From IMG/VR virus record IMGVR_UViG_2690316068_000002: 64,000 nt of DNA; one strand, 5' to 3'. The notes below the pieces were generated by a model. It was not told the DNA's origin, made no database searches, and was given only the letters and a program-made list of their open reading frames with translations. Below, one piece after another: positions 1 to 15,604 of the stretch (the first letter of the stretch is position 1; the number at the start of each line of letters is the position of its first letter). A program made the position numbers and the translations under genes. This DNA is from a virus (lineage: Duplodnaviria > Heunggongvirae > Uroviricota > Caudoviricetes).

Positions 1-937
1 TGCCTTCCAGCATGGCAGGCCAGAACAGGCTGTGGAAGTAAACAATATCTTTACCGATGAAGTGGTACAGCTCGGCGGTGGAGTCTTTCTTCCAGTATTC
101 ATCGAAGCTGGTGGTATCGCCGCGCTTGTCGCACAGATTCTTGAAGGAACCCATGTAGCCAATCGGCGCGTCCAGCCAGACGTAGAAATATTTGCCCGGC
201 GCGTTCGGAATTTCAAAACCGAAGTAAGGCGCATCTCGGGAGATATCCCACTGTTGCAGGCCGGATTCAAACCATTCCTGCATTTTGTTCGCCACCTGCT
301 CCTGCAACGCGCCGCTGCGGGTCCATGCCTGCAACATTTCGCTGAAAGAAGGCAGATCAAAGAAGAAGTGTTCGGAATCACGCATTACCGGGGTAGCGCC
401 AGAAACCACCGATTTCGGCTCGATCAATTCAGTCGGGCTATATGTTGCGCCGCAGACTTCACAGTTATCGCCGTATTGATCTGGCGCTTTACATTTCGGG
501 CAGGTGCCTTTTACAAAACGATCCGGCAGGAACATGCCTTTTTCCGGGTCGTACAACTGAGAGATAGTGCGGTTTTTAATAAAACCGTTCTCTTTCAGGC
601 GAGTATAGATAAGCTCAGACAACTGACGGTTCTCTTCGCTGTGCGTCGAGTGATAGTTGTCATAGCTGATGTTAAAGCCTGCGAAATCAGTCTGGTGTTC
701 CTGACTCATTTCGCCAATCATCTGCTCCGGTGTGATACCAAGCTGCTGTGCTTTCAGCATGATCGGCGTACCGTGGGCATCGTCGGCACAGATGAAATTA
801 ACCTCGTGGCCGCGCATTCGCTGGTAACGAACCCAGACATCAGCCTGGATGTGCTCCAGCATATGGCCGAGGTGGATTGAGCCGTTAGCGTACGGCAGCG
901 CGCACGTCACCAGAATTTTCTTCGCGACTTGGGTCAT
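1..937 (-). CDS. metG: Methionyl-tRNA synthetase, N-terminal part (3' end runs off the window start)
   Basis: Reverse-complement translation from ATG at 937 reads [19 protein letters not shown]..., matching the enterobacterial MetG N-terminus as recalled. Plus-strand ORF 32..880 is its antisense shadow. Divergent from mrp as in Enterobacteriaceae. Confidence 0.9.
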
Positions 938-1094
938 AGTAGGCATTACTTCTTTGTAGTGAAAAGGGGCTTGATAGTAACAAAATGGCCTTATGTCTGC
1001 CATGTGATAACAGCATTTCTCATAAATGATTAAATGTCGTAGCTGGAGTACACTACAAGGCGACAATTGCGCAAATTAAAATAAAGGAGACGGG

Positions 1095-2195
1095 ATGAGC
1101 GAGTCCAAATCGCCGGATGCCCTGAGAGCAATGGTAGCCGGTACGCTGGCTAATTTTCAGCACCCAACCCTGAAACACAACCTGACTACGCTTAAAGCGT
1201 TACACCATGTTGCGTTGATGGATGACACACTGCATGTCGAACTAATCATGCCTTTCGTGTGGAATAAGCCTTTTGAAGACCTGAAAGAGCAATGTAATGG
1301 TGATCTGCTCCGTATCACTGGCGCAAAGGCTATTGACTGGAAGCTGTCGTACAACATTGCCACGCTTAAGCGCGTCAAAAACCAACCAGGTATTAATGGC
1401 GTTAAGAACATTATCGCCGTCAGCTCAGGCAAGGGCGGCGTGGGTAAATCCTCCACGGCGGTAAACCTGGCACTGGCGTTGGCTGCTGAAGGTGCGAAAG
1501 TTGGTATTTTGGATGCCGATATCTATGGTCCATCAATTCCAACCATGCTGGGCGCGGAAAACCAACGTCCAACCTCACCTGACGGTACTCACATGGCACC
1601 TATCATGTCTCATGGCCTGGCAACCAACTCTATTGGTTATCTGGTCACCGACGACAATGCAATGGTGTGGCGTGGACCGATGGCCAGCAAGGCGCTGATG
1701 CAGATGTTGCAGGAAACTCTATGGCCTGATCTGGACTATCTCGTTCTCGATATGCCGCCGGGCACTGGTGATATTCAGTTGACGCTGGCGCAGAACATTC
1801 CTGTAACTGGTGCGGTTGTGGTAACTACGCCGCAAGACATCGCGCTGATCGATGCGAAGAAAGGCATTGTGATGTTCGAAAAAGTCGAAGTGCCGGTACT
1901 GGGTATCGTCGAAAACATGAGTGTGCATATTTGCAGTAACTGCGGTCATCACGAGCCAATTTTTGGCACCGGTGGCGCACAGAAACTGGCCGAGAAATAC
2001 AACACGCAGTTGTTAGGCCAAATGCCACTTCATATCTCTCTTCGTGAAGATCTGGATAACGGAACACCAACCGTTATTAGTCGTCCAGATAGCGAATTTA
2101 CGGCTATTTATCGTGACCTCGCAGATCGCGTTGCTGCCCAAATGTATTGGCAAGGTGAAGTAATACCTGGCGAAATCGCATTCCGCGCAGTGTGA
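1095..2195 (+). CDS. mrp: Fe-S cluster carrier ATPase Mrp/ApbC
   Basis: 366 aa; P-loop SSGKGGVGKSS; near-identical over most of its length to E. coli Mrp as recalled, with a different N-terminus. GGAG Shine-Dalgarno upstream. Confidence 0.93.
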   Translation: MSESKSPDALRAMVAGTLANFQHPTLKHNLTTLKALHHVALMDDTLHVELIMPFVWNKPFEDLKEQCNGDLLRITGAKAIDWKLSYNIATLKRVKNQPGINGVKNIIAVSSGKGGVGKSSTAVNLALALAAEGAKVGILDADIYGPSIPTMLGAENQRPTSPDGTHMAPIMSHGLATNSIGYLVTDDNAMVWRGPMASKALMQMLQETLWPDLDYLVLDMPPGTGDIQLTLAQNIPVTGAVVVTTPQDIALIDAKKGIVMFEKVEVPVLGIVENMSVHICSNCGHHEPIFGTGGAQKLAEKYNTQLLGQMPLHISLREDLDNGTPTVISRPDSEFTAIYRDLADRVAAQMYWQGEVIPGEIAFRAV

Positions 2196-2201
2196 TAAAA
2201 A

Positions 2202-2220
2202 GGCGGTGCATTGCACCGCC
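2202..2220. terminator. GC-rich hairpin between convergent mrp and the UmuD'-like gene; bidirectional terminator candidate
   Basis: ggcggtgcattgcaccgcc perfect stem-loop; T-run on the minus-strand side. Confidence 0.5.
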
Positions 2221-2232
2221 TAATCAGTTCTC

Positions 2233-2622
2233 CTACATCACGGGACAATCATCAAACTCGCCACTTCTTGCGTCGTTGATAATGTGAGTGATCACACCAA
2301 ACACGGCATTGCTGCCCGTGCATCCATCGTCATCCTTTGGCAATGCTTCCTTCTTACCGGTTCTTAAATCCTCCAGATGCTGACGTGGATACTTCCGGTA
2401 TCTTTTTACGCGATATTCCCCATCCAGAGCGCATACAAGCAGAGAACCATCAACCGGGGTAAGTGAGGAATCGACCACCAGCAATGCACCCTGTAATATT
2501 CCCTCACGATGATGACTATCAGCTGCCCTCATGAAGTAGGTCGCTGAAGGATGTCTAATTATCTGCTGATCAAGAGAAATACGGCTCTCAGCATAATCCG
2601 CCGCAGGAGAAGGGAAGCCCAT
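2233..2622 (-). CDS. UmuD'-like S24 peptidase (HumD-like, pre-truncated form)
   Basis: 129 aa; begins at GFPSPAADY, the position of the UmuD autocleavage site; Ser-Lys dyad context retained (DSH...VKRY). No umuC partner downstream. Confidence 0.8.
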   Translation of the reverse strand: MGFPSPAADYAESRISLDQQIIRHPSATYFMRAADSHHREGILQGALLVVDSSLTPVDGSLLVCALDGEYRVKRYRKYPRQHLEDLRTGKKEALPKDDDGCTGSNAVFGVITHIINDARSGEFDDCPVM

Positions 2623-2638
2623 AATACTCGCCTCTTAA

Positions 2639-2658
2639 TACTGTATATACATACAGTA
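2639..2658. promoter_or_regulatory. LexA (SOS) box upstream of the UmuD'-like gene
   Basis: TACTGTATATACATACAGTA: CTGT-N8-ACAG with AT-rich spacer, 17-36 nt upstream of the minus-strand ATG at 2622. Confidence 0.8.
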
Positions 2659-2958
2659 TATGTTGAAGCTATATATTTTTGAACTCTATCTCTTAAAAAA
2701 GATGTTAATAAGATGCTAACTATTGAAAGGCATAAATATATACAATTCCAACAAACGTTATTTTTAACAAATTTTTTCTCTCTGTTGACTTTTGCGAAAG
2801 CCTTGTCTGGCCTAAATTGCGCGGAAGCTACTTTTTCCTTCCTGAGTTATCCACAGAGTTATGCACTTGCATGCATAACCTATACACACTATCTTAATTC
2901 GCAAGACACTGATGTTGCGGTATTGAAGGTTCATTGGGTTAAAAATAGACATTAAAAA

Positions 2959-2984
2959 GCCCAGTTGACTAGGCTGGGCTTTTT
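2959..2984 (+). terminator. Rho-independent terminator-like hairpin
   Basis: gcccag-N-ctgggc stem followed by TTTTT; A-run on the other side. Confidence 0.45.
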
Positions 2985-3284
2985 AAAAGGAAACAGAGTT
3001 TGCGGCTCTGTTCCTGAGCCATAAGTATCTGGCGACTGAATTAAGATTAACCGAATGTACTGGATTCATCAAGAAACGTTGAGTGGTCATACCAGGTAAT
3101 AATGACCATTTACTAAACATCGTTGTTCTCAAAGAAGATTTAAGTCCAGGTTTTTGGTGACTCTAAAACCTTACCTTAACTCGAAATCGTGCCGTAAGTA
3201 TCTGGCGACTACAGATATTGCAACTGCAAAGGCAAGCCCAAAGGTATTTGCAGCTAGGCGCGATAAAACTAAGTGAGGCCTGTT

Positions 3285-3368
3285 ATGGTTAACTTACTGT
3301 TCAAAATCGTGCCGCCGATGTTCGCGATTATCAAAGCGATCATTGAGTACGTAAACCAGCGTCCATAA
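3285..3368 (+). CDS. Small hydrophobic peptide (27 aa), candidate membrane peptide
   Basis: ATG preceded by GAGG Shine-Dalgarno at about 6 nt; MVNLLFKIVPPMFAIIKAIIEYVNQRP; followed by a strong terminator hairpin. Below ORF-track size cutoff. Confidence 0.25.
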   Translation: MVNLLFKIVPPMFAIIKAIIEYVNQRP

Positions 3369-3381
3369 CGCTAGTTGCTAC

Positions 3382-3410
3382 AGGCCCCATCAAGAGCATG
3401 GGGCCTCTTT
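3382..3410 (+). terminator. Rho-independent terminator
   Basis: aggcccca/tggggcct 8-bp stem followed by CTTTAT. Confidence 0.5.
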
Positions 3411-3423
3411 ATCGTACTATTGC

Positions 3424-4050
3424 TTATTTTTTACGGACTGAGTTGTTCACTGCTCTGGCAATCTTCTCCCGCAATTGCTGCGTTCCGTGGTACTGAACCG
3501 CAATATCTCTCAACTCGTTCACCAGTTCTCGAATCTGGTGATCTTTAAGCTCATTATTTGGGTGATTGGTAACAACTCTGGTTAATTCACCCTTGTCTTT
3601 TGCTCTTACGTATGCAGCTCTTGTGCATTCGACCCATGTATTACCGCCTACATTAACTTCGTAGATTAGGCTGGACTTATCTGTCAATTCGGAACAAATA
3701 CGGGCCGTGGTCTGGCAACTAGAGCATTCGCAGTTATCGCGGAAACCGTGATCTACCGGTCGAGAAAGAGGTTTAACTTTTTCATCCAACTTCATCACAG
3801 CATCGTGATAAGCGTTCCAGCCGTCATCTTTACCAAGTTGATAAATCTCTGAAGGCTCCATGTAGTCTATATCGCAACCTTCTTCATCCGATCTATCTGG
3901 TCGCTTCCCTGGTAATCGCTCATAAAAACAATTTCTGTCTCGACGTTCGGCTCTCAGTGCTAACGCAAGAAGTTGCTCAAGCGAGGTATTTGCACCAGCA
4001 ATAATTTCATTGAGAATATCTTCTGTGAGATCTTTCGCTACCGTGCTCAT
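3424..4050 (-). CDS. Hypothetical protein (Cys-rich)
   Basis: 208-aa ORF; first of a tightly packed, overlapping minus-strand gene array. Confidence 0.5.
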   Translation of the reverse strand: MSTVAKDLTEDILNEIIAGANTSLEQLLALALRAERRDRNCFYERLPGKRPDRSDEEGCDIDYMEPSEIYQLGKDDGWNAYHDAVMKLDEKVKPLSRPVDHGFRDNCECSSCQTTARICSELTDKSSLIYEVNVGGNTWVECTRAAYVRAKDKGELTRVVTNHPNNELKDHQIRELVNELRDIAVQYHGTQQLREKIARAVNNSVRKK

Positions 4051-4430
4051 TTATCTCTCTCAGTATGTTGCGATGGCGTAAATTTGACGACATCAAATAT
4101 TTTGGATGGCATCAACTTTATCCGCGAGCTTAGTTCGGCTCTTCTCTGTAATGCGGTTAATAATGTTTTCGTTCTGACGCCTTCGTGTATCCTCATCCCT
4201 GGCACAAGAACTACATCGCAGGGGAGATGCTCAGGTGACAAATCATTTTGGGCATCGCTAATCAGTCGTGTAATCTCTCTTTCAAGCCGACCGCCTAGCT
4301 CTGTTTTAGTGCAATGTTCTGACCAATCGCCAGCCTCAAGCAGCGCGAGAATGCTTAAAATATCGTCCAATAGATCAGTGGTATTATCGACTTCCTTCTG
4401 AAACTCACCGGCTACTGATTTATGCATCAT
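4047..4430 (-). CDS. Hypothetical protein
   Basis: 127-aa ORF; 4-nt overlap with the downstream gene. Confidence 0.5.
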   Translation of the reverse strand: MMHKSVAGEFQKEVDNTTDLLDDILSILALLEAGDWSEHCTKTELGGRLEREITRLISDAQNDLSPEHLPCDVVLVPGMRIHEGVRTKTLLTALQRRAELSSRIKLMPSKIFDVVKFTPSQHTERDK

Positions 4431-5080
4431 TCGTCATCCTCATCCGAGTCATCCTCATCAAAGGATGAGAGTAGTGGGTTAGTCATTCGCCCTACTTGAG
4501 TGGCGTAGCCACGCCGACAGAGATTGCGCAGCACACTGTATATTTCGAACATCTCGGTTCGTTCATCGCCAACATCAAGCTCAGATGCTATAGCGTGGCA
4601 TTCAGTCGCGAGAGCCGATATTTTCTGAAATAACTCTGCATTATTCACTGTTCGACTCCTGCGGCGTTCTGGTAGTGGCATCCAGTGTGTGACATTGCTA
4701 ATCAGACCATATTCATTAGTTTGAGGATGGTTGCCGTTATCGTCTCCGTATTTAAGACTCTCCATAAAGCCATAATGCCTATCACCATTAACGCTCACAA
4801 AGCCGTAATAAGCAGGTATAACGCCGATCTCACACGTAACCAGTAAAGGAAAACTAGTTCTCCAATTTAGCTCGCCAATTACAGGCATTCGCTCACTACA
4901 GCTTATCCAACCATCCTTAGATGCGGCTGTATTGGCATAGGCCTTACGGTGCTTCTGTAGCTCTGCTGCAATCGCTCTCACGACTTCAACTGGTGCCCTT
5001 GCAGCAAACTCAATGTTGGTGATCAGCTCATTAAGATATTTCTCGCTTGGGTAGCATTTCTTATTGTTAACGGTGGTCAT
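4427..5080 (-). CDS. Hypothetical phage protein, DUF551-like
   Basis: 217 aa; ...THWMPLPE motif reminiscent of DUF551; acidic C-terminal tail. Confidence 0.45.
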   Translation of the reverse strand: MTTVNNKKCYPSEKYLNELITNIEFAARAPVEVVRAIAAELQKHRKAYANTAASKDGWISCSERMPVIGELNWRTSFPLLVTCEIGVIPAYYGFVSVNGDRHYGFMESLKYGDDNGNHPQTNEYGLISNVTHWMPLPERRRSRTVNNAELFQKISALATECHAIASELDVGDERTEMFEIYSVLRNLCRRGYATQVGRMTNPLLSSFDEDDSDEDDE

Positions 5081-5265
5081 TAGGCAGCTCTCTCAACAAC
5101 AAGCAATTCGTCGTAGTCATAATCAGTTTCGGAACCATCCGTACCGAACAGAGTCACTTTGTCATTTTCCATCCAAAAAGATTTAACCGCACATTGTTGA
5201 CCTTTAGATGTTATGAGCACATCACCAGGGATTACGTCTTCAGCGCGAACCTCTAGTGTTCTCAT
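5080..5265 (-). CDS. Hypothetical small protein
   Basis: 61-aa ORF, coupled to neighbours. Confidence 0.4.
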   Translation of the reverse strand: MRTLEVRAEDVIPGDVLITSKGQQCAVKSFWMENDKVTLFGTDGSETDYDYDELLVVERAA

Positions 5266-5792
5266 CGTGCTGCCCCCTCTTTGGTGAAAATGCCTGCTGC
5301 AATGCTGTTTATGATGCTGTCAGTGCATGGAGTAGAAAGCTGGGCATCTCCAGCAATTTTCATGACCTCAACATCCGCATATCGAATACCGAGGTGTATC
5401 AGACCGGCTATACCTGACTTAAGTCGAACATTTTCCATAAACAGATCTTTTTCCCGCTGTTTAGCGGCTTCCAACTCCATCGACAATTTTTCCAACTGCT
5501 CTTTATGCTTCTTGTATTCCTGATACGCGTGCCAAGACTGACCTTTGCGCACACTATCAGCGATATCAGCAACCTGCTCTGGTGTTAGCGTGGTCAGTGG
5601 CTGTGATGGAAAAATCATCACTTGCCCGGCATCCCAATCAAAACCCGCCTGAATTGACTGAACCTCAACTGATGGTGTTGAACCGATGCGACCAGGCGAA
5701 TGAACAACGATCGTTACATCCATATCGCGACGATGGCTGTGGTTGTTGGACAAAATACGATTCACCAACTCAGAAAATTTGGATAATTTCAT
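5262..5792 (-). CDS. Hypothetical protein
   Basis: ORF-track 5262..5921 trimmed to internal ATG at 5792, which overlaps the upstream stop (ATGA). Confidence 0.45.
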
Positions 5793-6112
5793 GCTGATCT
5801 CTCTTTCTCTCCCCGGATAATTCTGTTGCACACATCCACACACTCGTCGCAGATGAAAACGGCGTCCCCAGCAATTAACTTTTTGACGGCGTACTGGGAT
5901 TTGTTGCAGAAGCTGCAACAAAGTGTTCGCCTGACTGATAAGGATGGAGCGCCAGATGTCAGCCGCTCCATATCGTTCTTGCGACGCAATATCACACGGC
6001 TGAACTCAACCAGTTTCTCCGGGGATATCTCCTCCTCCGTAGCGAGCGTCTCTAGTCGTTCGAGTATGTTGAAGGCTTTTTCTTGGGTAATAGCAGAGTG
6101 CGATGTGGTCAT
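5789..6112 (-). CDS. ClpX-type zinc-finger domain protein
   Basis: 107 aa; C-terminus [35 protein letters not shown] matches the ClpX N-terminal C4 zinc-binding domain pattern. Confidence 0.55.
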
Positions 6113-6510
6113 TTTCTTTCACCTTCAATGTTCGTGGCGCTGGCAAGATTGTCCTTGCGAAGAAGAGCGGCTATGCGCTTACTTCCATCCGAGATAACGC
6201 CCTCGTAATACTCACGCTGCTCGTTGAGTTTTGATTTTGCCAACTCCAGTTGTTTTGTTAGTTCCGCAATACGGCAAACATCGTTGATACGCGTTTCCTC
6301 TAATGCGTTGATCTCATCCAGTAGTGCCAGCACGGTTTCTGGTCCGGCCAGAAATTTGAAGGCGTTGAGGGCATCAATATCAACACCGCTATCTTTAAGT
6401 TCCTGTTCGCATATCAGATCATCATCAACTGGCAACATTAACAGGCGTTCCATTGCCGGAATTGCACGCTCTGCCGCCTCACGCAGTGCCTGATAGTCAA
6501 TCTTGCTCAC
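6109..6510 (-). CDS. Hypothetical protein, Ead/Ea22-like
   Basis: 133 aa; N-terminus [14 protein letters not shown]... resembles lambdoid early-region Ea22-like proteins. Confidence 0.4.
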
Positions 6511-7007
6511 TGGATGACTCCTTTACGAAGCTGTTCAGCAATACTTACGCATATCTCTGCGCCTCTAATCAGCCCCGGAACGTTCTTGTTTGGCCCAACT
6601 TCACCATCAACAAAATCAATCATCGCGTTACGAGCCATATCCACGCCCTGCGCACGTACTTCAGCCAGAAAAGCATCGGTGGCTGGAGTCTCCGTTAATT
6701 CGCTAACCCAATTATCTCCGTGTTCCTCGGCACACATCGCATCGAATGCTCGCTCAGATTCTTTCAGGGCTGCATTCTCCGCCGCTAATGCGTCTCTCTG
6801 CGCTCGCAACTTCTCAATTTCGGCAGCCATGTAGTAACCAACCATAGCGAAAGTGGCGAAAGGGTAGTCAGAATCATCAGGAGATACGGAGGCCATTAGC
6901 AGACCATCGTGCATGTTCTGGCTTCCATCAGTGATGGATACCGCATAAGAATCGCTGGTTTCCCGTTTATACAATACGACGACCGGGTTCTTGATTTTCT
7001 CTCTCAT
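6507..7007 (-). CDS. Hypothetical protein
   Basis: 166-aa ORF, coupled. Confidence 0.45.
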   Translation of the reverse strand: MREKIKNPVVVLYKRETSDSYAVSITDGSQNMHDGLLMASVSPDDSDYPFATFAMVGYYMAAEIEKLRAQRDALAAENAALKESERAFDAMCAEEHGDNWVSELTETPATDAFLAEVRAQGVDMARNAMIDFVDGEVGPNKNVPGLIRGAEICVSIAEQLRKGVIQ

Positions 7008-7561
7008 TACGATGCCTCTAACTTATCTAACTCTTTCAGCCCTTCACGTACCGCGTTCACAATGCGTTCCAGATACTGGTATTTCGGGTTTGGTACCGTT
7101 GGCCAGTCGGCATACCACGGATCATCACCAAAGAGATTCAGCAGTTTGTTACCGACGCCGAAACAACAGCAGCTTTCTTTTACGTCATCGGTGTTTTCCG
7201 CCTCGTCCCACATTTCACGAGCCAGTACGGCGTCGATTTCTCTCTCTCTTCGTAACTTTATGATTTCTGACTTCACGAAAAGCAGATTTGCATCGTTGTC
7301 ATCGTCGACCGTGCTTCGCAGTTGAGAGTCGAAATAGCCGATTAGATACTCGTTGCTGACCCGCTTAATGAACGTCTGCACATCATCACCGCCCATAGCA
7401 AACCAAGCCGCAGTCCACGCTTTTCCGTAGCAGATGATGGTGATTCTTCCCTTACCAGGTTCGTAGTTTTCAATCATCACTCGAACCGGATCGAGGCGTT
7501 CCAGATCCGTCAGCACAAAGGAAAGAACATCTATTTTTTCGACCTTCATGCAGCCTCCCAC
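7007..7561 (-). CDS. Hypothetical protein
   Basis: 184-aa ORF. Confidence 0.45.
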   Translation of the reverse strand: MGGCMKVEKIDVLSFVLTDLERLDPVRVMIENYEPGKGRITIICYGKAWTAAWFAMGGDDVQTFIKRVSNEYLIGYFDSQLRSTVDDDNDANLLFVKSEIIKLRREREIDAVLAREMWDEAENTDDVKESCCCFGVGNKLLNLFGDDPWYADWPTVPNPKYQYLERIVNAVREGLKELDKLEAS

Positions 7562-8187
7562 GCGCTCCAGATCAGCGATTTGTGTTTTTCATAACGTTTG
7601 ATGTGTACCGGTTTCAGAAGCGCAATACCTTCAGTGACTTTCGCCATTGCGCTTAATAGCAACGGGTGTTCTATACCTATCCTCTCCATGTACTCGACAA
7701 CATCAGCGTTGGCACCAATCTCTTTGCCGTGAAAGAGTACGTCCAGCATCAGTTCTTTCTCTGCGAGGTAGACAGCTGAAAACTCGGGATCGCGACTCAC
7801 GATAGAAGAGGTATTGTCGAGCAGGTCAGCCAGCTTGATCATGCGCGTCTGCATGTCGAGATTTTGCTCCAGCTCCCGGACATTGATGATGAAACGCTGT
7901 ATTCGATTGCCGTCTTCTGGCCTTGCAATGTTGGTCAGAGCCTGAACCATTTCAGCTACGCGCTCACCGAAGTGATCACGAACCATCTCTATGGTTACAT
8001 GGGTGTCTTCGACCACATCATGCAGAAGCGCCGCGATTTGCATCTCCACGGTTCCGTCATGCAATGCAACAATCTCTCGGACAGCAACCGGGTGGTTGAT
8101 GTAGTCTTCGCCGGTATATTTTCTTTTCTGACCAACGCCACCATGAGCGCCAGCGGCGAACATATGAGCTTCGGAAATACTAGACAT
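7546..8187 (-). CDS. HD-domain phosphohydrolase, SpoT/Mesh1-like (p)ppGpp hydrolase family
   Basis: 213 aa; HPVAV...AALLHDVVEDT HD motif aligns with the SpoT hydrolase domain. Confidence 0.6.
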   Translation of the reverse strand: MSSISEAHMFAAGAHGGVGQKRKYTGEDYINHPVAVREIVALHDGTVEMQIAALLHDVVEDTHVTIEMVRDHFGERVAEMVQALTNIARPEDGNRIQRFIINVRELEQNLDMQTRMIKLADLLDNTSSIVSRDPEFSAVYLAEKELMLDVLFHGKEIGANADVVEYMERIGIEHPLLLSAMAKVTEGIALLKPVHIKRYEKHKSLIWSAWEAA

Positions 8188-8255
8188 TCTTAACTCCGTT
8201 GTTTTCTAGTTGTGGTTATTTTCACAAATAAGAAAAGGTAGAAAACAATTTATTT

Positions 8256-8280
8256 AAGGCCACAACTTATGGCCTTTATT
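8256..8280. terminator. Terminator-like hairpin
   Basis: aaggcc-N-ggcctt stem with T-rich 3' flank on the plus strand. Confidence 0.3.
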
Positions 8281-8306
8281 TATTCATGCCGAAGGATTTG
8301 TAGCGT

Positions 8307-8687
8307 CTAATTGCCGGATAAAATGGGGTGAGGTGCTTGCCAGTAGGCTCCACCGGTCCATGTGAACCCCATGCGAATAAGAGTGTTTATTGCGGCTTTG
8401 GTAGACTCCGATTCGACACTGGCTTTTCGAAACTCTTGAACCTCTTTCGCCAACTTGTATGTAATTGTGCAGGGGACGATTGCAGCCCAGCCTTTCTCAT
8501 GACTGTTAATGACCATCTGGATGTGACCATCCAGAATAGGTTGATTAGGCATGTTATTGAAAATGTCTGCCTGTTTTTGAATGTGAAGAAAAAGCCTTGC
8601 CAGCTCCATTTGCTCACTACGAGACAAGGGATTATCAAGAGGGCTTTTTGCAAAAGCGGCTATACGCTGTGCGTCAATGCCAAACAT
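8307..8687 (-). CDS. Hypothetical protein
   Basis: 126-aa ORF. Confidence 0.45.
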   Translation of the reverse strand: MFGIDAQRIAAFAKSPLDNPLSRSEQMELARLFLHIQKQADIFNNMPNQPILDGHIQMVINSHEKGWAAIVPCTITYKLAKEVQEFRKASVESESTKAAINTLIRMGFTWTGGAYWQAPHPILSGN

Positions 8688-9391
8688 CAGCGCACCTCAC
8701 CATCTTTATGGCTGGAGTTAACTTCCGCCATTAAATGTCTGACGTAATCGACAAGAGAGCCACCTGGTGGAATCTGGCATTCCTCAACTAACTGGAAGTA
8801 GATATCCGCTGCATTACGTGTATTGCTACCCGCACATATTCTTTCTTCCCGAAGTGCATGAAGCTCGTTGATCAAACGGTCACACTCTCCGTTACGCTGA
8901 TCCACAACGGCCTCAAGCTCTGCGACGCGTTCACCTGGCGTCTTACCTTCTTTGCGTTGGATGGTAACGACGAAATCGCCAATTGCAGGGACGTTGTAAT
9001 CCAGCTCAAGGTAGTTTTTGGCACCGCTGCGGACGAACTCACCCGCGAACATGGTGGCGAACATCGCAGAGGCCACTTCGCCGTTGAAAAGTGACTCCAG
9101 ATCTAACGGAGTCCCGGCATCAAGAGCCTCTTTTGCTGTATCCATTGCATCCATGAACCGATCAAACTCATTGGCGCGCTTTTCCAGGTTTTTCCATTGC
9201 TCGCTCCAACGTTTGGCAACGAAGTCTATGAATGTTTTCGCGGATTCATCAAAATCCCCCTCAAACTTAACGATGCCTTTATCAATAATGATCTGGCCTA
9301 CCGCATCCTCTGCATAACCTTTCAATGTAAACTTGAAAGGAAAATCAGAATGGCCTGTGACGTTAAAATGCTCTAACTGGAGGTTGTTCAT
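8687..9391 (-). CDS. Hypothetical protein
   Basis: 234-aa ORF; stereotyped ribosome-binding context upstream. Confidence 0.5.
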   Translation of the reverse strand: MNNLQLEHFNVTGHSDFPFKFTLKGYAEDAVGQIIIDKGIVKFEGDFDESAKTFIDFVAKRWSEQWKNLEKRANEFDRFMDAMDTAKEALDAGTPLDLESLFNGEVASAMFATMFAGEFVRSGAKNYLELDYNVPAIGDFVVTIQRKEGKTPGERVAELEAVVDQRNGECDRLINELHALREERICAGSNTRNAADIYFQLVEECQIPPGGSLVDYVRHLMAEVNSSHKDGEVR

Positions 9392-9452
9392 GTGTTTTTC
9401 TCTTATCGTTTAGTAACTACATTCTTACACAAATTAGGTAAGTATTTACCTA

Positions 9453-11138
9453 TCATTTAACGCGTTTGAAAACGTATACGCTGACTGTGATCCCTGTGTC
9501 TTCAAACTCGTTGGTAAACGACTTCCCTCTGGCATAAACGTAATTATCCATCGTCATCCAGTCCAGTATTGGCGCAGTGCCCGGCAATACTGCTACAAGA
9601 CGCCCGCCGACTTTCAGATGCCCCAGCGCAGCCAGCGTGTGCTCTCTATGACGACCAAGCGAGTACGGCGGGTTCATAACGATTTTGTCGAACTGATAAC
9701 CTACGTTGTCCTCAGACCACTTTATGAAGTCGCAGCAAATCGTGTTCGTATACCCTTTTCCGCGCAGGATATCAGCGAAGAGAGGTGCGATTTCTATGCA
9801 GGTAACATCTTCCAGATCGGCGTTGATATAGGCCAGAAGATCCCCACGTCCGGCTTGAGGCTCCAGCAGCTTCTCACCAGACTTCAATTCAGTGGCTCTG
9901 GCAACGTACTCAGCAATCAAGCGTGGGGTAGGGTAGAACTGGTGTGATTTTGTATCCGGTATTAATCCGGTAGCCACAATCGTATTTAGCGTATGGCCGA
10001 TCTCATACGGGAACTGCCAGTGCTTTTTCTCCTGCACGCCGCCAATGAAGCTCAGTGTGCGCTCAAGCTCTTCCACCTGCGACTTCTGGAGAGCTGAATC
10101 AGAGAAGTACCATACGCCTTTGTCTTTGCTTAATCGCCCGTCACGAAGCGCAGTGCGAACCGGCACGGAGATCGTCTTCTGGATTAACCCGAACTGCTTT
10201 GGTGCCCGTGTTTTTGGCGCGGTGCGACATGGCGCGGGGATTGCAGCAGGCATACTGTAAGCCAGCACCTCATTCAACTTCCAGGCCACGTCAGGATGTA
10301 TTTCAAAGTGAACGTTGCCGTTCTTGAACATCTTCACGCGCATTAGATTTCCATCGACGTTCATCCAGTCACCGGTCTGGCAGTCGTTTGCCCGATACGC
10401 AGCTGATAGCACCTCAGCAGTGCGGTTGATGGTAATAAATTCTTTGTGCGCGAAGAAATGAAGCAAGACACGCAGATCGTCGATATAGTCCTCTTTGCGA
10501 TAGTTCACACTAACGCTGTCCCGCCAGAAATCAGAAATGCAGTCAGCGATTATCAGACGTTCGCTGAAACCGTTTGTCTTATTTGTCTTGTGCGCAGGAC
10601 TCAGCGCCTTAAACAAGCCATACACGCGCTCAGAGAGATATTTGTGCCTGTCATTCAGCAAATTAAGCATCGTGGGTATGACCGTTTCTGCTTTGAACTC
10701 CGGTACACCAACGAACTCTTTAACCTTCATCTGGTAGCCGGTTCTGTCAGTTTTGATGACTTCCTGTTTGCCCTCTATAAACTGCTCGCGCCACTCATCT
10801 CGACGGGAAGCTGGCATGATCAGCAAAACGTTAGTCATGTCCGTGACCTTCCTCCAGTACTCGGCCCAAATATTCTGTTTCACCCATTCCAGATCGACTT
10901 TATCCAACCAACCTCGATTTAAACGCGAGCGATCTTCATCTGGTCGATGGTTTAGTCTCAGCAGGCGATTAATCATGTTGTGGCGTTCGTCGCCATAAAC
11001 GAAGTCGTGTACCTGATACATGAAGGCGATCTCTTTCTCGCACTCGGCCACAATTTCGTGGATGACGTTCATTTCCTGCCGATAGTCGATAGCAGTGTTT
11101 GAGTTGGCATCGTCGATGATGGAAAGGGCTGTATTCAT
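9453..11138 (-). CDS. DNA methyltransferase (N6A/N4C class) with large N-terminal domain of unknown function
   Basis: 561 aa; C-terminal FYPTP...LEPQAGRG...VMNPPY motifs. Confidence 0.65.
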   Translation of the reverse strand: MNTALSIIDDANSNTAIDYRQEMNVIHEIVAECEKEIAFMYQVHDFVYGDERHNMINRLLRLNHRPDEDRSRLNRGWLDKVDLEWVKQNIWAEYWRKVTDMTNVLLIMPASRRDEWREQFIEGKQEVIKTDRTGYQMKVKEFVGVPEFKAETVIPTMLNLLNDRHKYLSERVYGLFKALSPAHKTNKTNGFSERLIIADCISDFWRDSVSVNYRKEDYIDDLRVLLHFFAHKEFITINRTAEVLSAAYRANDCQTGDWMNVDGNLMRVKMFKNGNVHFEIHPDVAWKLNEVLAYSMPAAIPAPCRTAPKTRAPKQFGLIQKTISVPVRTALRDGRLSKDKGVWYFSDSALQKSQVEELERTLSFIGGVQEKKHWQFPYEIGHTLNTIVATGLIPDTKSHQFYPTPRLIAEYVARATELKSGEKLLEPQAGRGDLLAYINADLEDVTCIEIAPLFADILRGKGYTNTICCDFIKWSEDNVGYQFDKIVMNPPYSLGRHREHTLAALGHLKVGGRLVAVLPGTAPILDWMTMDNYVYARGKSFTNEFEDTGITVSVYVFKRVK

Positions 11139-11179
11139 AATTGCACCATTAAGAAGTGATTTGTTTAATGGTGCAATTA
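11139..11179. promoter_or_regulatory. Perfect 14-bp inverted repeat abutting the methyltransferase start codon
   Basis: aattgcaccattaa-N13-ttaatggtgcaatt. Confidence 0.4.
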
Positions 11180-11241
11180 TTTCAAAAATGAAAAGGTACT
11201 AAATAGAAATAAACAGGCAATCCTTCAAATAAAGGCATTGG

Positions 11242-11856
11242 CTAATCATACTTGGAGGTATTTATCACCAGAATTTTGTTTGTATAAATCTTCTTAATAT
11301 CCCATGTGACATTACCGGAATACCATTGACCGTTATATACTTGGTTTCCAGTTGCACCTGTCATTGTTACATAGACAGGTCTGTCGTAATCGGTTCGTCT
11401 ATAGTTATATACCCCAACCATAGCAGGCATTACCGCACATGGATACCCCATATCTATTGTAAATTGAGGGTCAGAAATAGTGATAAGTTTCGCATCAAGG
11501 GGCATCATCTCACCGTGATACACCATTGCGCCTGCGCTGTTATACATGGCAATGCCATAGCCAGAATGTGGTAACACCATATCAGAAAAAGCATAAACTG
11601 TTATTGTTCCGGGGCTACCATTTACCTGATGCAATCTGAGAGCATTGTATCCGTTACTATGCTCATGAATAAACATCATGTTCGCCTTATTACTGCTTTT
11701 TATGAAGAAAAAGCATGATTTGTTTGATGGGATTGATGTTTGAAAAACAGAACCTTTAGATGTAGACATTGTCCCTTTATTAATCAGATTTTGCGGAGTA
11801 AATTCTGGACTCATCCACAAACTTCCATCTGATTGAGTAATTGACATCCCGAACAT
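11242..11856 (-). CDS. Hypothetical protein (low-GC cassette, gene 2)
   Basis: ORF-track 11242..11913 trimmed to ATG at 11856, 2 nt after the upstream stop; AT-rich. Confidence 0.35.
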   Translation of the reverse strand: MFGMSITQSDGSLWMSPEFTPQNLINKGTMSTSKGSVFQTSIPSNKSCFFFIKSSNKANMMFIHEHSNGYNALRLHQVNGSPGTITVYAFSDMVLPHSGYGIAMYNSAGAMVYHGEMMPLDAKLITISDPQFTIDMGYPCAVMPAMVGVYNYRRTDYDRPVYVTMTGATGNQVYNGQWYSGNVTWDIKKIYTNKILVINTSKYD

Positions 11857-11858
11857 AA

Positions 11859-12140
11859 TTATCCCCAGTATGTGTATATGTAAGAACCAAGCCCCGTATA
11901 TAAATTTGACCAACTAACCGTATTTCCATTAATAGTAACTGTTGGAACAGGTAAATTAATGTAGTTGTCGTTGTTAAGAGGCATCAATGACCACACGGCA
12001 TGTAGCGATTTACCCGGTGGCGGATTGGAGTACGTCTTAGAGCCTGATGACGCAGTAAATCGATCAAGAAAAAAAATAGGAGTAAGGAAGCCAGTAACGT
12101 TAATTCCTTTATTGTTGTAAATCCCTGTACCGTATGCCAT
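11859..12140 (-). CDS. Hypothetical protein (low-GC cassette, gene 1)
   Basis: 93 aa; AAGGA Shine-Dalgarno before ATG at 12140. Confidence 0.35.
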   Translation of the reverse strand: MAYGTGIYNNKGINVTGFLTPIFFLDRFTASSGSKTYSNPPPGKSLHAVWSLMPLNNDNYINLPVPTVTINGNTVSWSNLYTGLGSYIYTYWG

Positions 12141-12195
12141 TTTTCATCCTTGTTTTTTATCAACACAATATGGCCGATCATGCGGCCATATCAGA

Positions 12196-12765
12196 TCAAT
12201 TAGAGCTTTGAAAGGCTTTGTGTGGCTGTGTTGCGAGGTTATGTCGATGGCTTAACTCACGCATCATGTCTTCAAGCCGACTCTTTGTGTCGTCGAGTTG
12301 GTCGGCCATTGCTCCCAAAAGCTGACGAACGGCCATCGGATCATCGCTGTTTAGTGATGGCATTTTATAACCCGCCTGAGAAGACATAAGATTGAACGCA
12401 GACATCAACATCGTTAGAGAGGATGTAAGCCCAGCAATTTCACGATCTTTGCTGGCAATAATCGCCTCACTCTTGTTAGTGTCATCAGTTCGTTGAGTCT
12501 CGCTCACCATATCCAAAGTCGCCTGCAACTTATCAGCGCGCTCTTTTTCAGCAAGATAATGAACACCGAAATGATGTGCTAAAGCTACAACCTGAGTTGG
12601 CTCTTCAAAGGTGGACTCAAAATTAAGTGCTGTAACCACTCTCTCAAATATGGAAACGTCTTCTATTCCTCGAAGAATGGCTAACATTTTGACCAGTTCA
12701 TTAGCATCCATTTCTTCGAATAAGGCGTTTTGTTCATCAGCTATCGCTTTGCATTTCTTGCACAT
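12196..12765 (-). CDS. Hypothetical protein
   Basis: 189-aa ORF; conserved upstream motif and ribosome-binding context. Confidence 0.5.
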   Translation of the reverse strand: MCKKCKAIADEQNALFEEMDANELVKMLAILRGIEDVSIFERVVTALNFESTFEEPTQVVALAHHFGVHYLAEKERADKLQATLDMVSETQRTDDTNKSEAIIASKDREIAGLTSSLTMLMSAFNLMSSQAGYKMPSLNSDDPMAVRQLLGAMADQLDDTKSRLEDMMRELSHRHNLATQPHKAFQSSN

Positions 12766-13062
12766 GTGTTTTTCCTAATGCTTAAACAAGTTGTTTTCTT
12801 ATTGGCTTTATTGTGATGTGGCATAAAAGGGGAGCAAGCTAAACGTAAAGGTGCAAACTCTCTATTTCGGTCAACGAAACACAAGGGCCATTTGGCCCTT
12901 GTCATTAACACGTTGCTTTACGGACTAGCGGATAAGCGAAGTAGATCGCCAGACCAATGAGGACGCCATCAGAAATGACAGACATCATCTTTCCCGTAAA
13001 ATCCACCAACACCGCCATCACCAGAAGAGCAATGACGGTCACAAGCCGGAATCTCTCAAGCA

Positions 13063-13779: not shown

Positions 13780-14027
13780 ACAACCGCCTTAGTCACAGCA
13801 TGATCCTGAGTAACTGGATGAACTTGAGGTATCGCATCCACCGTCATCCCATCCAGAGTGACAGGACGCTCTACTGGAGTGGTGGTAATTGTCGTCGACG
13901 GAGGTGTGGTGATGGATGAACCCGGCATCAAAAGGCTCTGGCCGGCTGGAACGGCTACCGTCGCCAGTGAAACTATAATGAGAACGTAGGCCATTGGTTT
14001 CAGCCTCTTTCTTTGAAAATTTTCCAT
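13776..14027 (-). CDS. Small Pro/Thr-rich protein with signal-peptide-like N-terminus (alternative frame)
   Basis: 83-aa ORF embedded out of frame in the 3' half of 13789..14283. Confidence 0.3.
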   Translation of the reverse strand: MENFQRKRLKPMAYVLIIVSLATVAVPAGQSLLMPGSSITTPPSTTITTTPVERPVTLDGMTVDAIPQVHPVTQDHAVTKAVV

Positions 14028-14283
14028 TCGAACTGTCCTTGTTGTTTTTCTCCTTCACTAAAGGCCGTGTACTTTTCGCTTCGCGTGAAGAACCAGAGGT
14101 AACAATCGCCCCCACGTTCGCAACAACTGACGCTTGCTTATCTAAACGTTCATTCAGCAACCGAACGGCAGTCTCTAGTTCATCAAGACGTGACAGAACA
14201 CGACCGCTAAATAATTCGGCCAAAATTTGACGTAGTGAACGAGGACGTTTAGTTGCAGAAGTGAAATAGGTTTGACGTGCCAT
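13789..14283 (-). CDS. Hypothetical protein (C-terminal half low-complexity)
   Basis: 164-aa ORF starting at ATG 14283; overlaps an alternative-frame ORF. Confidence 0.35.
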   Translation of the reverse strand: MARQTYFTSATKRPRSLRQILAELFSGRVLSRLDELETAVRLLNERLDKQASVVANVGAIVTSGSSREAKSTRPLVKEKNNKDSSNGKFSKKEAETNGLRSHYSFTGDGSRSSRPEPFDAGFIHHHTSVDDNYHHSSRASCHSGWDDGGCDTSSSSSYSGSCCD

Positions 14284-14428
14284 GTGGACTCCATCCAGTG
14301 TCAGAAAGAGTTGCGGCTGGCGATTGCCAGCCGCCTTTCTCGTTCCATCCTGGAACTGTGTCTTACCGACACATTGTCATCCTGACGCCGATAAGATACA
14401 TGATTTAAAATGATAGGTAAACACTTAC

Positions 14429-15073
14429 TTACTGCTTGTTGTAAACAAAACCAATATCTTTCTTGTGAGGCATATCTGCTGCGGAAAAAGCTGCGATCTT
14501 CGCGAGTCGATCACATATTTCATTTTCACGATGCCCGGCGTGACCTTTAACCCACTTCCAGCGAACATTATGTCGACTTGCAGCCTCATCCAGACGCTTC
14601 CACAGATCAACATTCTTTACCGGTTTTTTATCAGAAGTCATCCATCCATTACGTTTCCACCATTTCATCCACTGTGTCATGCCGTTTTTCAGATACTGGC
14701 TATCAGAGTACAAAATAACGTTGCATGGATATTTCAAACGCTCCAGCCCGATAAGTGCGCCCATCATCTCCATGCGGTTATTGGTGGTGCTATGAAAACC
14801 ATCTGAGAACTCGCGTTCCTCACCACGATACTGGAGAACGATACCGTAACCGCCCGGGCCACCCGGATTTTTAAGGCAAGAGCCATCACTAAAGATTTTC
14901 ACGGTTTTGAGCTGGGGATTGAACTCTACGACAGGCGTTGTGGGATTGGTGCGGGGAGATTTTTTGTTTTTGGCTTTTTTGCGAGTTTTTGCTTGCGATC
15001 GGGCTGGTGTCTTCGTCGTCATATAAACTCCTGAATCAAGCGCCGCGCCGATTTTTTCCTCGCGCGTGCGCAC
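14429..15073 (-). CDS. Ribonuclease HI with N-terminal basic extension
   Basis: [21 protein letters not shown]...[10 protein letters not shown]...[16 protein letters not shown] aligns to E. coli RNase HI catalytic residues. True start may be an internal Met. Confidence 0.8.
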
Positions 15074-15604
15074 ACGCGTGCGTGTTAATAATTATTAAAA
15101 TAAACAAATTACTTCCCAGAACAGGTTTTTATAAACCTGAACTGAACGAACGAAGTGAGTGAAGTTCACCTCGAACGAAGTGAGAGGTTGTCTTTTCAGG
15201 TAATACTCTCCCAGGGAGGTGAGTATAAAATTCCTCACCAACCTGGTCGTTTCATAACCTGAAAAGCTATGGTCTAAGTCTACTGCCAGCTTAGACTTGG
15301 GAAGTTATGGATGACAGCACCCCAGAACCGAGATCTTCCCACACTTTATGAAGGGGAGTACTGGATTCAACCTCTCGAAACACCCCAGACTCGACAATCA
15401 TAAAGTGACCCTTGTCTCTGCTCACTTTGGTTCCCCCTTCCCCGACACCTAAACGGCACCGGTTCTACGCTGGTAGTGAGCTTTTTTAAACCTGACGCCA
15501 GTGACGCTTACCCCCACCCATCAGGTCGAGTCTCCAGTCTACGACTGGAAACTATCAGATCTTAGCACTTACAATTCACTTTATAAATAGTTTGTACTTA
15601 TCTA

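Follow-up and report, generated by a model that had tools for sequence, protein, structure and literature searches.

A ClpX-type zinc-binding domain without its ATPase in a mobile gene of temperate phages: a possible mimic of the ClpX N-domain

In the present study we analyse a gene for a small protein with a ClpX-type zinc-binding domain (ZBD), located at 5789-6112 on the minus strand of a 64,000-nucleotide stretch of DNA from a virus of the Caudoviricetes (IMG/VR record IMGVR_UViG_2690316068_000002); this whole stretch is referred to as the window. The encoded protein of 107 amino acids (aa) carries the domain at its C-terminus with a similarity to ClpX well above chance expectation. We propose tentatively, at a probability of about 0.4, that it acts in trans as a mimic of the ClpX N-domain and would compete with ClpX for the adaptors and substrates that depend on this domain.

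Phage and plasmid replication initiators are among the proteins whose stability is controlled by ClpXP, as are RpoS, the proteins of SOS mutagenesis and certain antitoxins, and it is the N-domain that imposes selectivity on the protease. The ligands that dock on the ClpX ZBD also include UmuD and MuA, while degrons of the ssrA type are recognised by the pore instead. If our proposal is true, the protein would be, to our knowledge, the first viral modulator directed at ClpX, and it would illustrate a new principle, namely a decoy copy of the protease's own receptor domain.

A previous reading of this DNA made from the sequence alone (hereafter the sequence-only reading) had delimited the open reading frame and given its C-terminal sequence, in both cases exactly as we find them. 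It had also assigned the C-terminus to the ClpX C4 zinc-binding domain, an assignment with which the Pfam, PDB and fold matches described below concur, and had suggested that a free copy might be a decoy or an adaptor that redirects ClpXP, an idea that appears plausible and is partly supported by the literature.

Architecture of the 107-aa protein

The gene is complete and its features are as follows.

5789..6112, minus strand: gene of the 107-aa ZBD protein (phrog_6797), complete, with ATG at 6110-6112 and TGA at 5789-5791
5954..6112, minus strand: N-terminal domain, residues 1-53, predicted to form a hairpin of two helices (10-26 and 31-52) according to the AlphaFold2 model and the alignments
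5924..5953, minus strand: flexible linker, residues 54-63, with a predicted local distance difference test score (pLDDT) below 50 at residues 54-60
5804..5923, minus strand: ClpX-type C4 ZBD, residues 64-103, from profile, PDB and fold matches
6121..6126, minus strand: Shine-Dalgarno-like AAGGTG, 8 nucleotides 5' of the ATG, read from the sequence
6109..6112, minus strand: ATGA shared by the ZBD gene, at its start, and the upstream Ead/Ea22-like gene (6109-6510), at its stop, read from the sequence
5789..5792, minus strand: ATGA shared by the ZBD gene, at its stop, and the downstream 176-aa gene (5262-5792, phrog_6026), at its start, read from the sequence

The profile search against the ClpX zinc-binding family, which the sequence-only reading had named as the way to check its assignment, gave a significant match to Pfam PF06689 (zf-C4_ClpX; E=1.2e-15). 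The match scores 57.5 bits, where the gathering score is 27, and aligns residues 65-100 with positions 2-38 of the 39 in the profile. A phmmer search of the PDB retrieved the entries 1ovx and 2ds5 of the Escherichia coli ClpX ZBD at E values near 1e-14 over residues 62-103, and 28 of 40 residues (70%) are identical between the domain and that of E. coli ClpX. The zinc ligands C66, C69, C88 and C91, with the spacing CxxC-(18)-CxxC, align with those of ClpX and are invariant in 28 sequences; the beta-hairpin is formed by KKLIAG and VFIC and is followed by a C-terminal helix. In the AlphaFold2 model (mean pLDDT 76, and 83-90 in the ZBD) the strands occupy residues 79-81 and 86-88 and the helix residues 89-106. 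Foldseek superposes the predicted ZBD on the ClpX structures 2ds5, 2ds6, 2ds7, 2ds8 and 1ovx with a root-mean-square deviation of 1.3-1.8 Å and 68-72% identity, the next matches being LIM domains with E above 0.3.

The remainder of ClpX is missing. The NCBIfam ClpX equivalogs NF003745 and TIGR00382 align to the protein only at model positions 4-48. They reach 41.9 and 39.1 bits, where the cutoffs stand at 359 and 370.75, so that neither an AAA+ module nor the ClpP-docking IGF loop is present and the protein cannot itself unfold substrates. Pfam and NCBIfam at E≤1 returned the ClpX ZBD and one noise hit, with no match to the anti-adaptor families of IraD, IraM or IraP, and none of the defence models of PADLOC-DB matched at E≤1. 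A different identity is given by many GenBank and PGAP records, including those of loci L002, L003 and L004 and of the proteins P0002-P0026, in which the product is called a carboxylate--amine ligase. We reject this name: no ligase domain is found in Pfam or NCBIfam and the protein is too small. Since the ClpX zinc finger is the only domain found in these databases, the name must be regarded as a propagated annotation error.

The sequence-only reading had described the domain as standalone. This holds in so far as no ClpX ATPase is attached, but the domain is not bare, because residues 1-53 form a conserved helical hairpin joined to it by the linker. The residues E11, K12, E18, R19, E21, A24, E26, E27, R43, D47, L51 and S53 of this hairpin are invariant even though the subfamilies are only about 40% identical there. 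The linker differs between subfamilies both in sequence and in length, with a 3-residue indel and a high ratio of nonsynonymous to synonymous substitution rates (dN/dS). An a/d-like hydrophobic pattern in the hairpin points to packing and to a probable dimerisation, by which avidity would be increased.

The hairpin has no homologues outside the family in Pfam, NCBIfam or PADLOC, and in PHROGs it finds phrog_6797 alone (E=8.8e-27 for the N-domain by itself). When a profile of the hairpin alone was run against a word-indexed set of 5.8 billion proteins, it retrieved solely carriers of PF06689 or frameshifted and truncated fragments of them. An exhaustive HMMER search of 1.84 billion representatives gave 14 matches, all from the same family except two long repetitive proteins, whose multiple short matches look like coiled-coil noise. 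We therefore reject a role of the hairpin as a cargo-binding module shared with other proteins, as it is confined to the family in which it is fused to the ZBD. These searches indicate that the fusion of hairpin and ZBD is a fixed, narrow family, whose named members all come from Escherichia or Salmonella.

Distribution and mobility of the gene

The gene is already catalogued without an assigned function, both as phrog_6797, which it matches at full length (E=6.2e-58, with residues 1-106 aligned to positions 1-106 of the 107 in the profile), and in RefSeq under the PGAP name "ClpX C4-type zinc finger protein" (for example WP_053882148.1 and WP_024187529.1). Over the 5.5 kb around it, E. coli plasmids of about 110 kb, pRHB31-C19_2 among them, show 100% identity and pECOH89 shows 99.4%. 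The Escherichia phages CMS-2020a, PhiR41_1 and Cyrano are also related to this segment, and Salmonella phage SSU5 is a more distant relative. From these identities we classify the window as an SSU5-like phage-plasmid of E. coli. Among 5426 complete E. coli genomes, 220 (about 4%) carry copies of the family, at 127 chromosomal and 106 plasmid places. Further members occur in the P1-like phage D6 (orf93) and the P2-like phage P88 (gp19), in prophages of UTI89 and O111 directly 3' of gpA-ParM-ParR, and in a lambdoid prophage, where the gene lies in a nin-type region downstream of the replication genes. The gene is thus a mobile accessory gene of SSU5-like, P1-like (D6), P2-like (P88) and lambdoid temperate phages. 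It was not found in the phages SSU5 and Cyrano.

The region around the gene is a mosaic accessory block whose content varies between otherwise similar plasmids; when window 6507-9391 is compared with 13840-15563 of locus L007, for instance, the HD-domain gene (7546-8187) and its neighbour are missing from pAVS0223-B. No neighbour is conserved across the phage types, the gene being flanked by different genes in D6 and in the P2-like phages, and the ZBD protein therefore seems to work alone or with host factors. Together with the 176-aa gene (window 5262-6112) it is 96-97% identical to a lambdoid prophage of E. coli DETEC-S792 (7001-7842 of locus L006), a similarity that points to recent gene flow between the phage-plasmid and an integrated lambdoid phage. 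We also considered that these two genes could form a system, and rejected it: their co-occurrence is limited to the SSU5-like plasmids and that one lambdoid prophage, as expected of a recently exchanged block. Frameshifted or internally deleted copies of the P2 type (P0126, P0143, P0146 and P0148) show that the gene is decaying in some prophages.

The dN/dS values, calculated by the Nei-Gojobori method on nine coding sequences, clearly speak for purifying selection on the gene overall (0.2-0.27). This bears on the possibility that the gene has no function and is merely what is left of a clpX 5' end once captured, hitch-hiking in a recombination hotspot. Such a remnant could be expected in so highly mosaic a region, and it would agree with the damaged copies and with the absence from SSU5 and Cyrano; however, four phage types share the two-domain layout and their indels are all in frame, the zinc ligands do not vary, the gene has a good Shine-Dalgarno sequence and ATGA coupling at both ends, and it constitutes a PHROG family of its own. 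Together with the purifying selection, these features lead us to give almost no credence to this explanation.

Outside the enterobacteria, the Caulobacter phage Cr30 (NC_025422.1, locus L012) contains at 1522-1761 on the plus strand an open reading frame of 79 aa with a ClpX-type ZBD and without the enterobacterial hairpin; it may be shorter if an internal start is used, and the annotation in the record is limited to a piece of 41 aa (gp170). Cr30 is lytic, T4-like and unrelated, and its own short ZBD hints at an independent capture, phages having acquired the domain more than once. A different case is Bacillus phage G, whose gp258 is a full ClpX adjoining a ClpP-like protease, unlike the 107-aa protein. 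Another standalone-ZBD architecture is seen in small non-ClpX proteins from metagenomes (P0031, P0035, P0046 and P0061), in which the ClpX-type ZBD is N-terminal and a second CxxC…CxxC motif lies at the C-terminus.

Competition for ClpX ligands and its alternatives

The proposal of a trans-acting mimic builds on the known properties of the host domain. In ClpX the ZBD acts as a dimeric platform for docking, as observed by cross-linking, and its deletion abolishes the RssB-mediated breakdown of sigma-S while leaving ssrA-tag degradation unaffected (PMC7226468). Lambda O is not degraded without the ZBD, and RssB, SspB and trigger factor share a hydrophobic region of the domain, including F16 and I46, that overlaps the lambda O site (PMC7804408). 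Furthermore, the free ZBD, purified and supplied in trans, inhibits RssB-mediated breakdown of sigma-S by ClpXP (PMC7226468, Fig. 1d) and cross-links to the C-domain of RssB (PMC7226468). Thus, we propose that the phage protein, made from a polycistronic early or accessory operon of temperate phages, would bind ClpX-docking motifs in trans through its free ZBD and titrate adaptors and ZBD-dependent substrates away from ClpXP. O-type replication initiators and sigma-S would then be selectively stabilised with ClpXP as a whole remaining active. In this mechanism the hairpin would most likely dimerise or oligomerise the protein, providing avidity for dimeric adaptors, or else make a second specific contact.

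Comparison with the host domain is consistent with this proposal. The phage ZBD resembles that of ClpX in sequence, in its four cysteine ligands, in its predicted fold, in F68, which is the equivalent of ClpX F16 and is invariant across the family, and in the KLIAG/V-F/Y-IC hairpin. Identity to the host ZBD ranges from 48 to 80% in the family, P2 and Salmonella-type members attaining up to 80% and those of the P2 type 78-80%. An identity of 70-80% exceeds what the zinc ligands and the core need, and so supports mimicry of the docking site. The lack of a conserved neighbour further implies that the target is supplied by the host. The phage protein differs from ClpX in having no AAA+ unfoldase, in carrying the ZBD at the C-terminus behind a hairpin of no known relatives, and in the helix surface of the domain (the equivalents of ClpX L42, D45 and I46), which varies within the family.

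Several points weigh against the proposal, and that variable helix surface is one of them. The replacements in the ZBD concentrate in the C-terminal helix, at those same three equivalents, and at a few positions flanking the beta-hairpin, and I98, which corresponds to the docking residue I46 of ClpX, may be I, V, L or G. Most members keep the KLIAG hairpin, but in a subclade from E. coli prophages (P0021, P0022, P0023, P0024 and P0026) KLIAG has become LIITG or LMLTG and VFIC has become VCIC, with the N-terminal hairpin nearly unchanged; the ligand specificity of this subclade may be altered. Among the close genes of the lambdoid/SSU5/D6 type, dN/dS is 0.15-0.27 in the N-terminal hairpin and 0.65-2.0 in the ZBD, a contrast that is suggestive only because it depends on just 9-18 substitutions, whereas against the P2-type genes the ZBD gives about 0.2 and the whole gene about 0.23-0.26. 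On these few sites, the specificity may have drifted from the ligands of ClpX; behind the variation there could be a relaxation of constraint, a change of specificity or an arms race, between which such thin data do not discriminate. Moreover, a pure decoy does not obviously need a strongly conserved N-terminal hairpin, and binding of the protein to any ClpX partner is putative. The inhibition in vitro took 5-20 µM free ZBD against 0.6 µM ClpXP (PMC7226468), so that a decoy would have to be abundant or avid. Finally, the phage-defence toxin-antitoxin system CmdTAC depends on ClpXP but uses an ssrA-like AA C-terminal degron for which the ZBD is not required, and this bypass weakens the obvious rationale based on antitoxins or defence. 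We have accordingly down-weighted an anti-toxin-antitoxin or anti-defence role, the PADLOC search having likewise given no matches.

The drift of the ZBD surface in one subclade and the stronger constraint on the N-domain among close relatives would also be explained if the ZBD had been co-opted as a general-purpose module for zinc-stabilised dimerisation or for peptide binding, which would regulate a phage or host target through the hairpin, the ZBD or both and leave proteolysis by ClpXP unaffected. PF06689 does occur in many small non-ClpX proteins and in other architectures, including sigma factors (PMC11119718). We nevertheless consider such a co-option unlikely, since the identity to the host ZBD is far above the needs of a mere scaffold, F68 of the ligand patch is kept throughout, and the family is confined to hosts with a ClpX resembling its ZBD.

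High identity to the host would preserve the dimer interface as well as the ligand surface, and it is highest in the P2-type members. The phage ZBD might pair with the ZBD of a ClpX subunit, which is normally a homodimer, break the trimer of dimers and hang its hairpin on ClpX, either blinding ClpXP to clients that depend on the N-domain or bringing to it a new cargo bound by the hairpin. The ZBD is a constitutive dimerisation domain by cross-linking (PMC7226468), and the conserved hairpin fits a payload or a cargo-binding module. The variable helix surface, however, speaks against such pairing. Within the hexamer the ClpX ZBD dimer is intramolecular and is described as stable, so that a swap with a free domain may be slow; the dimerisation of the ZBD is reportedly the subject of Wojtyra 2003 and Donaldson 2003, to judge by their titles. 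On balance we regard heterodimer formation as quite unlikely.

A true adaptor, whose hairpin would bind a cargo such as a host defence protein or a phage regulator and hand it over to ClpXP for degradation, is in our opinion very unlikely. Two modules separated by a flexible linker do recall SspB, with its cargo domain, linker and docking element, and engineered bait-anchor peptides are able to drive degradation by ClpXP (PMC12373786). However, the family conserves neither a C-terminal degron nor a ZBD-docking motif of the XB/LKxh type. When members were scanned with the expression L[KR]x[small hydrophobic], following the LRVVK/LKxh definition of PMC7226468, no XB-like motif appeared in 20 members of the lambdoid/SSU5 type or in the Salmonella type represented by P0141, and the sole match was a non-conserved LKQL in the single P2-type member scanned. 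This lack counts against a classical adaptor and leaves competition. In addition, the ZBD is a receptor and not a ligand, and delivery by an adaptor would consequently require the ZBD-ZBD pairing considered above.

Returning to the trans-acting mimic, its closest precedent comes from the laboratory, where recombinant ClpX ZBD, likewise free and without an ATPase, was used as a competitor (Micevski et al. 2020, PMC7226468; work of the Houry laboratory cited in PMC7804408). That reagent was an engineered host fragment applied at 5-20 µM, whereas the phage protein is a naturally evolved gene product with an extra domain and putative binding. The ClpXP anti-adaptors IraD, IraM and IraP are the other close precedent in function. 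They are, like the phage protein, small, on the order of 100 aa, and stabilise a client of ClpXP by blocking the docking of an adaptor; they have no sequence or domain relation to it, and none of them duplicates a domain of the protease itself. On RssB, the site proposed for docking of the ZBD overlaps that of IraD (PMC7226468). More loosely, the phage protein can also be set beside other small accessory proteins by which phages modulate an ATP-dependent host protease, among them cIII, which lambda expresses from the early operon of a temperate phage. These inhibitors of AAA+ proteases, T4 PinA and T7 Gp4.5 against Lon and lambda CIII against FtsH, act on other proteases, have unrelated folds, and none of them is known to mimic the substrate-docking domain of its own protease. 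In a search of the full-text literature we found no study of a phage-encoded free ZBD or of such a ClpX-directed phage protein, the only mentions retrieved concerning a virome contig that had been discarded and phage genes for ClpX of full length.

Should the protein be such a mimic, it would show how temperate phages and phage-plasmids tune the proteolysis of their host and yet leave ClpXP alive. It would then also account for the occurrence of the gene in about 4% of sequenced E. coli, among others on phage-plasmids such as pECOH89 that carry extended-spectrum beta-lactamases, and, as a genetically encoded tool, it would allow ClpXP degradation that depends on the N-domain to be told apart in vivo from that which depends on the pore. 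A broader and rather doubtful generalisation is that enterobacterial temperate phages and, independently, a lytic Caulobacter phage captured the ClpX docking domain and use it to reprogramme ClpXP selectively, either by blinding it to O-type initiators, RssB-sigma-S, SspB or UmuD-D', or by grafting a phage recognition module onto it through ZBD-ZBD pairing. Should the protein be unrelated to ClpXP, it would be an ordinary small accessory gene, and the practical gain would be the correction of the ligase misannotation.

Operon setting and neighbouring genes

The ATGA overlaps at both ends of the ZBD gene indicate that it is translationally coupled within a dense block of minus-strand genes. In a scan of positions 2000-13000 no convincing promoter or terminator was found that would split this block from about 12.5 kb down to 3.4 kb; promoter-like sites were fewer there than in shuffled sequences, and none lay within the gene block, which supports a long polycistronic unit. 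The neighbours of the ZBD gene are the Ead/Ea22-like gene, genes with DUF551, an HD domain or a DUF4942 methylase, and members of PHROGs without an assigned function.

At a distance of 3 kb from the ZBD gene, the minus strand encodes at 2233-2622 a UmuD'-like S24-family peptidase of 129 aa, annotated as a DNA repair protein. UmuD' is a substrate of ClpXP and is tethered via UmuD bound to the ClpX N-domain. We considered a functional link between the two genes and discarded it: they are not adjacent, and the pairing is not seen in the P1-like, P2-like and lambdoid neighbourhoods retrieved. Beside the accessory block (window 1-2195 and loci L001 and L007), the phage-plasmid has host-like housekeeping genes, namely metG, cut by the start of the window, and apbC (1095-2195, plus strand). 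Further on it carries nrdAB, thyA, a dihydrofolate reductase of the DfrA51 type, RNase HI, dnaE, a DnaB-like helicase, a ligase and four tRNAs.

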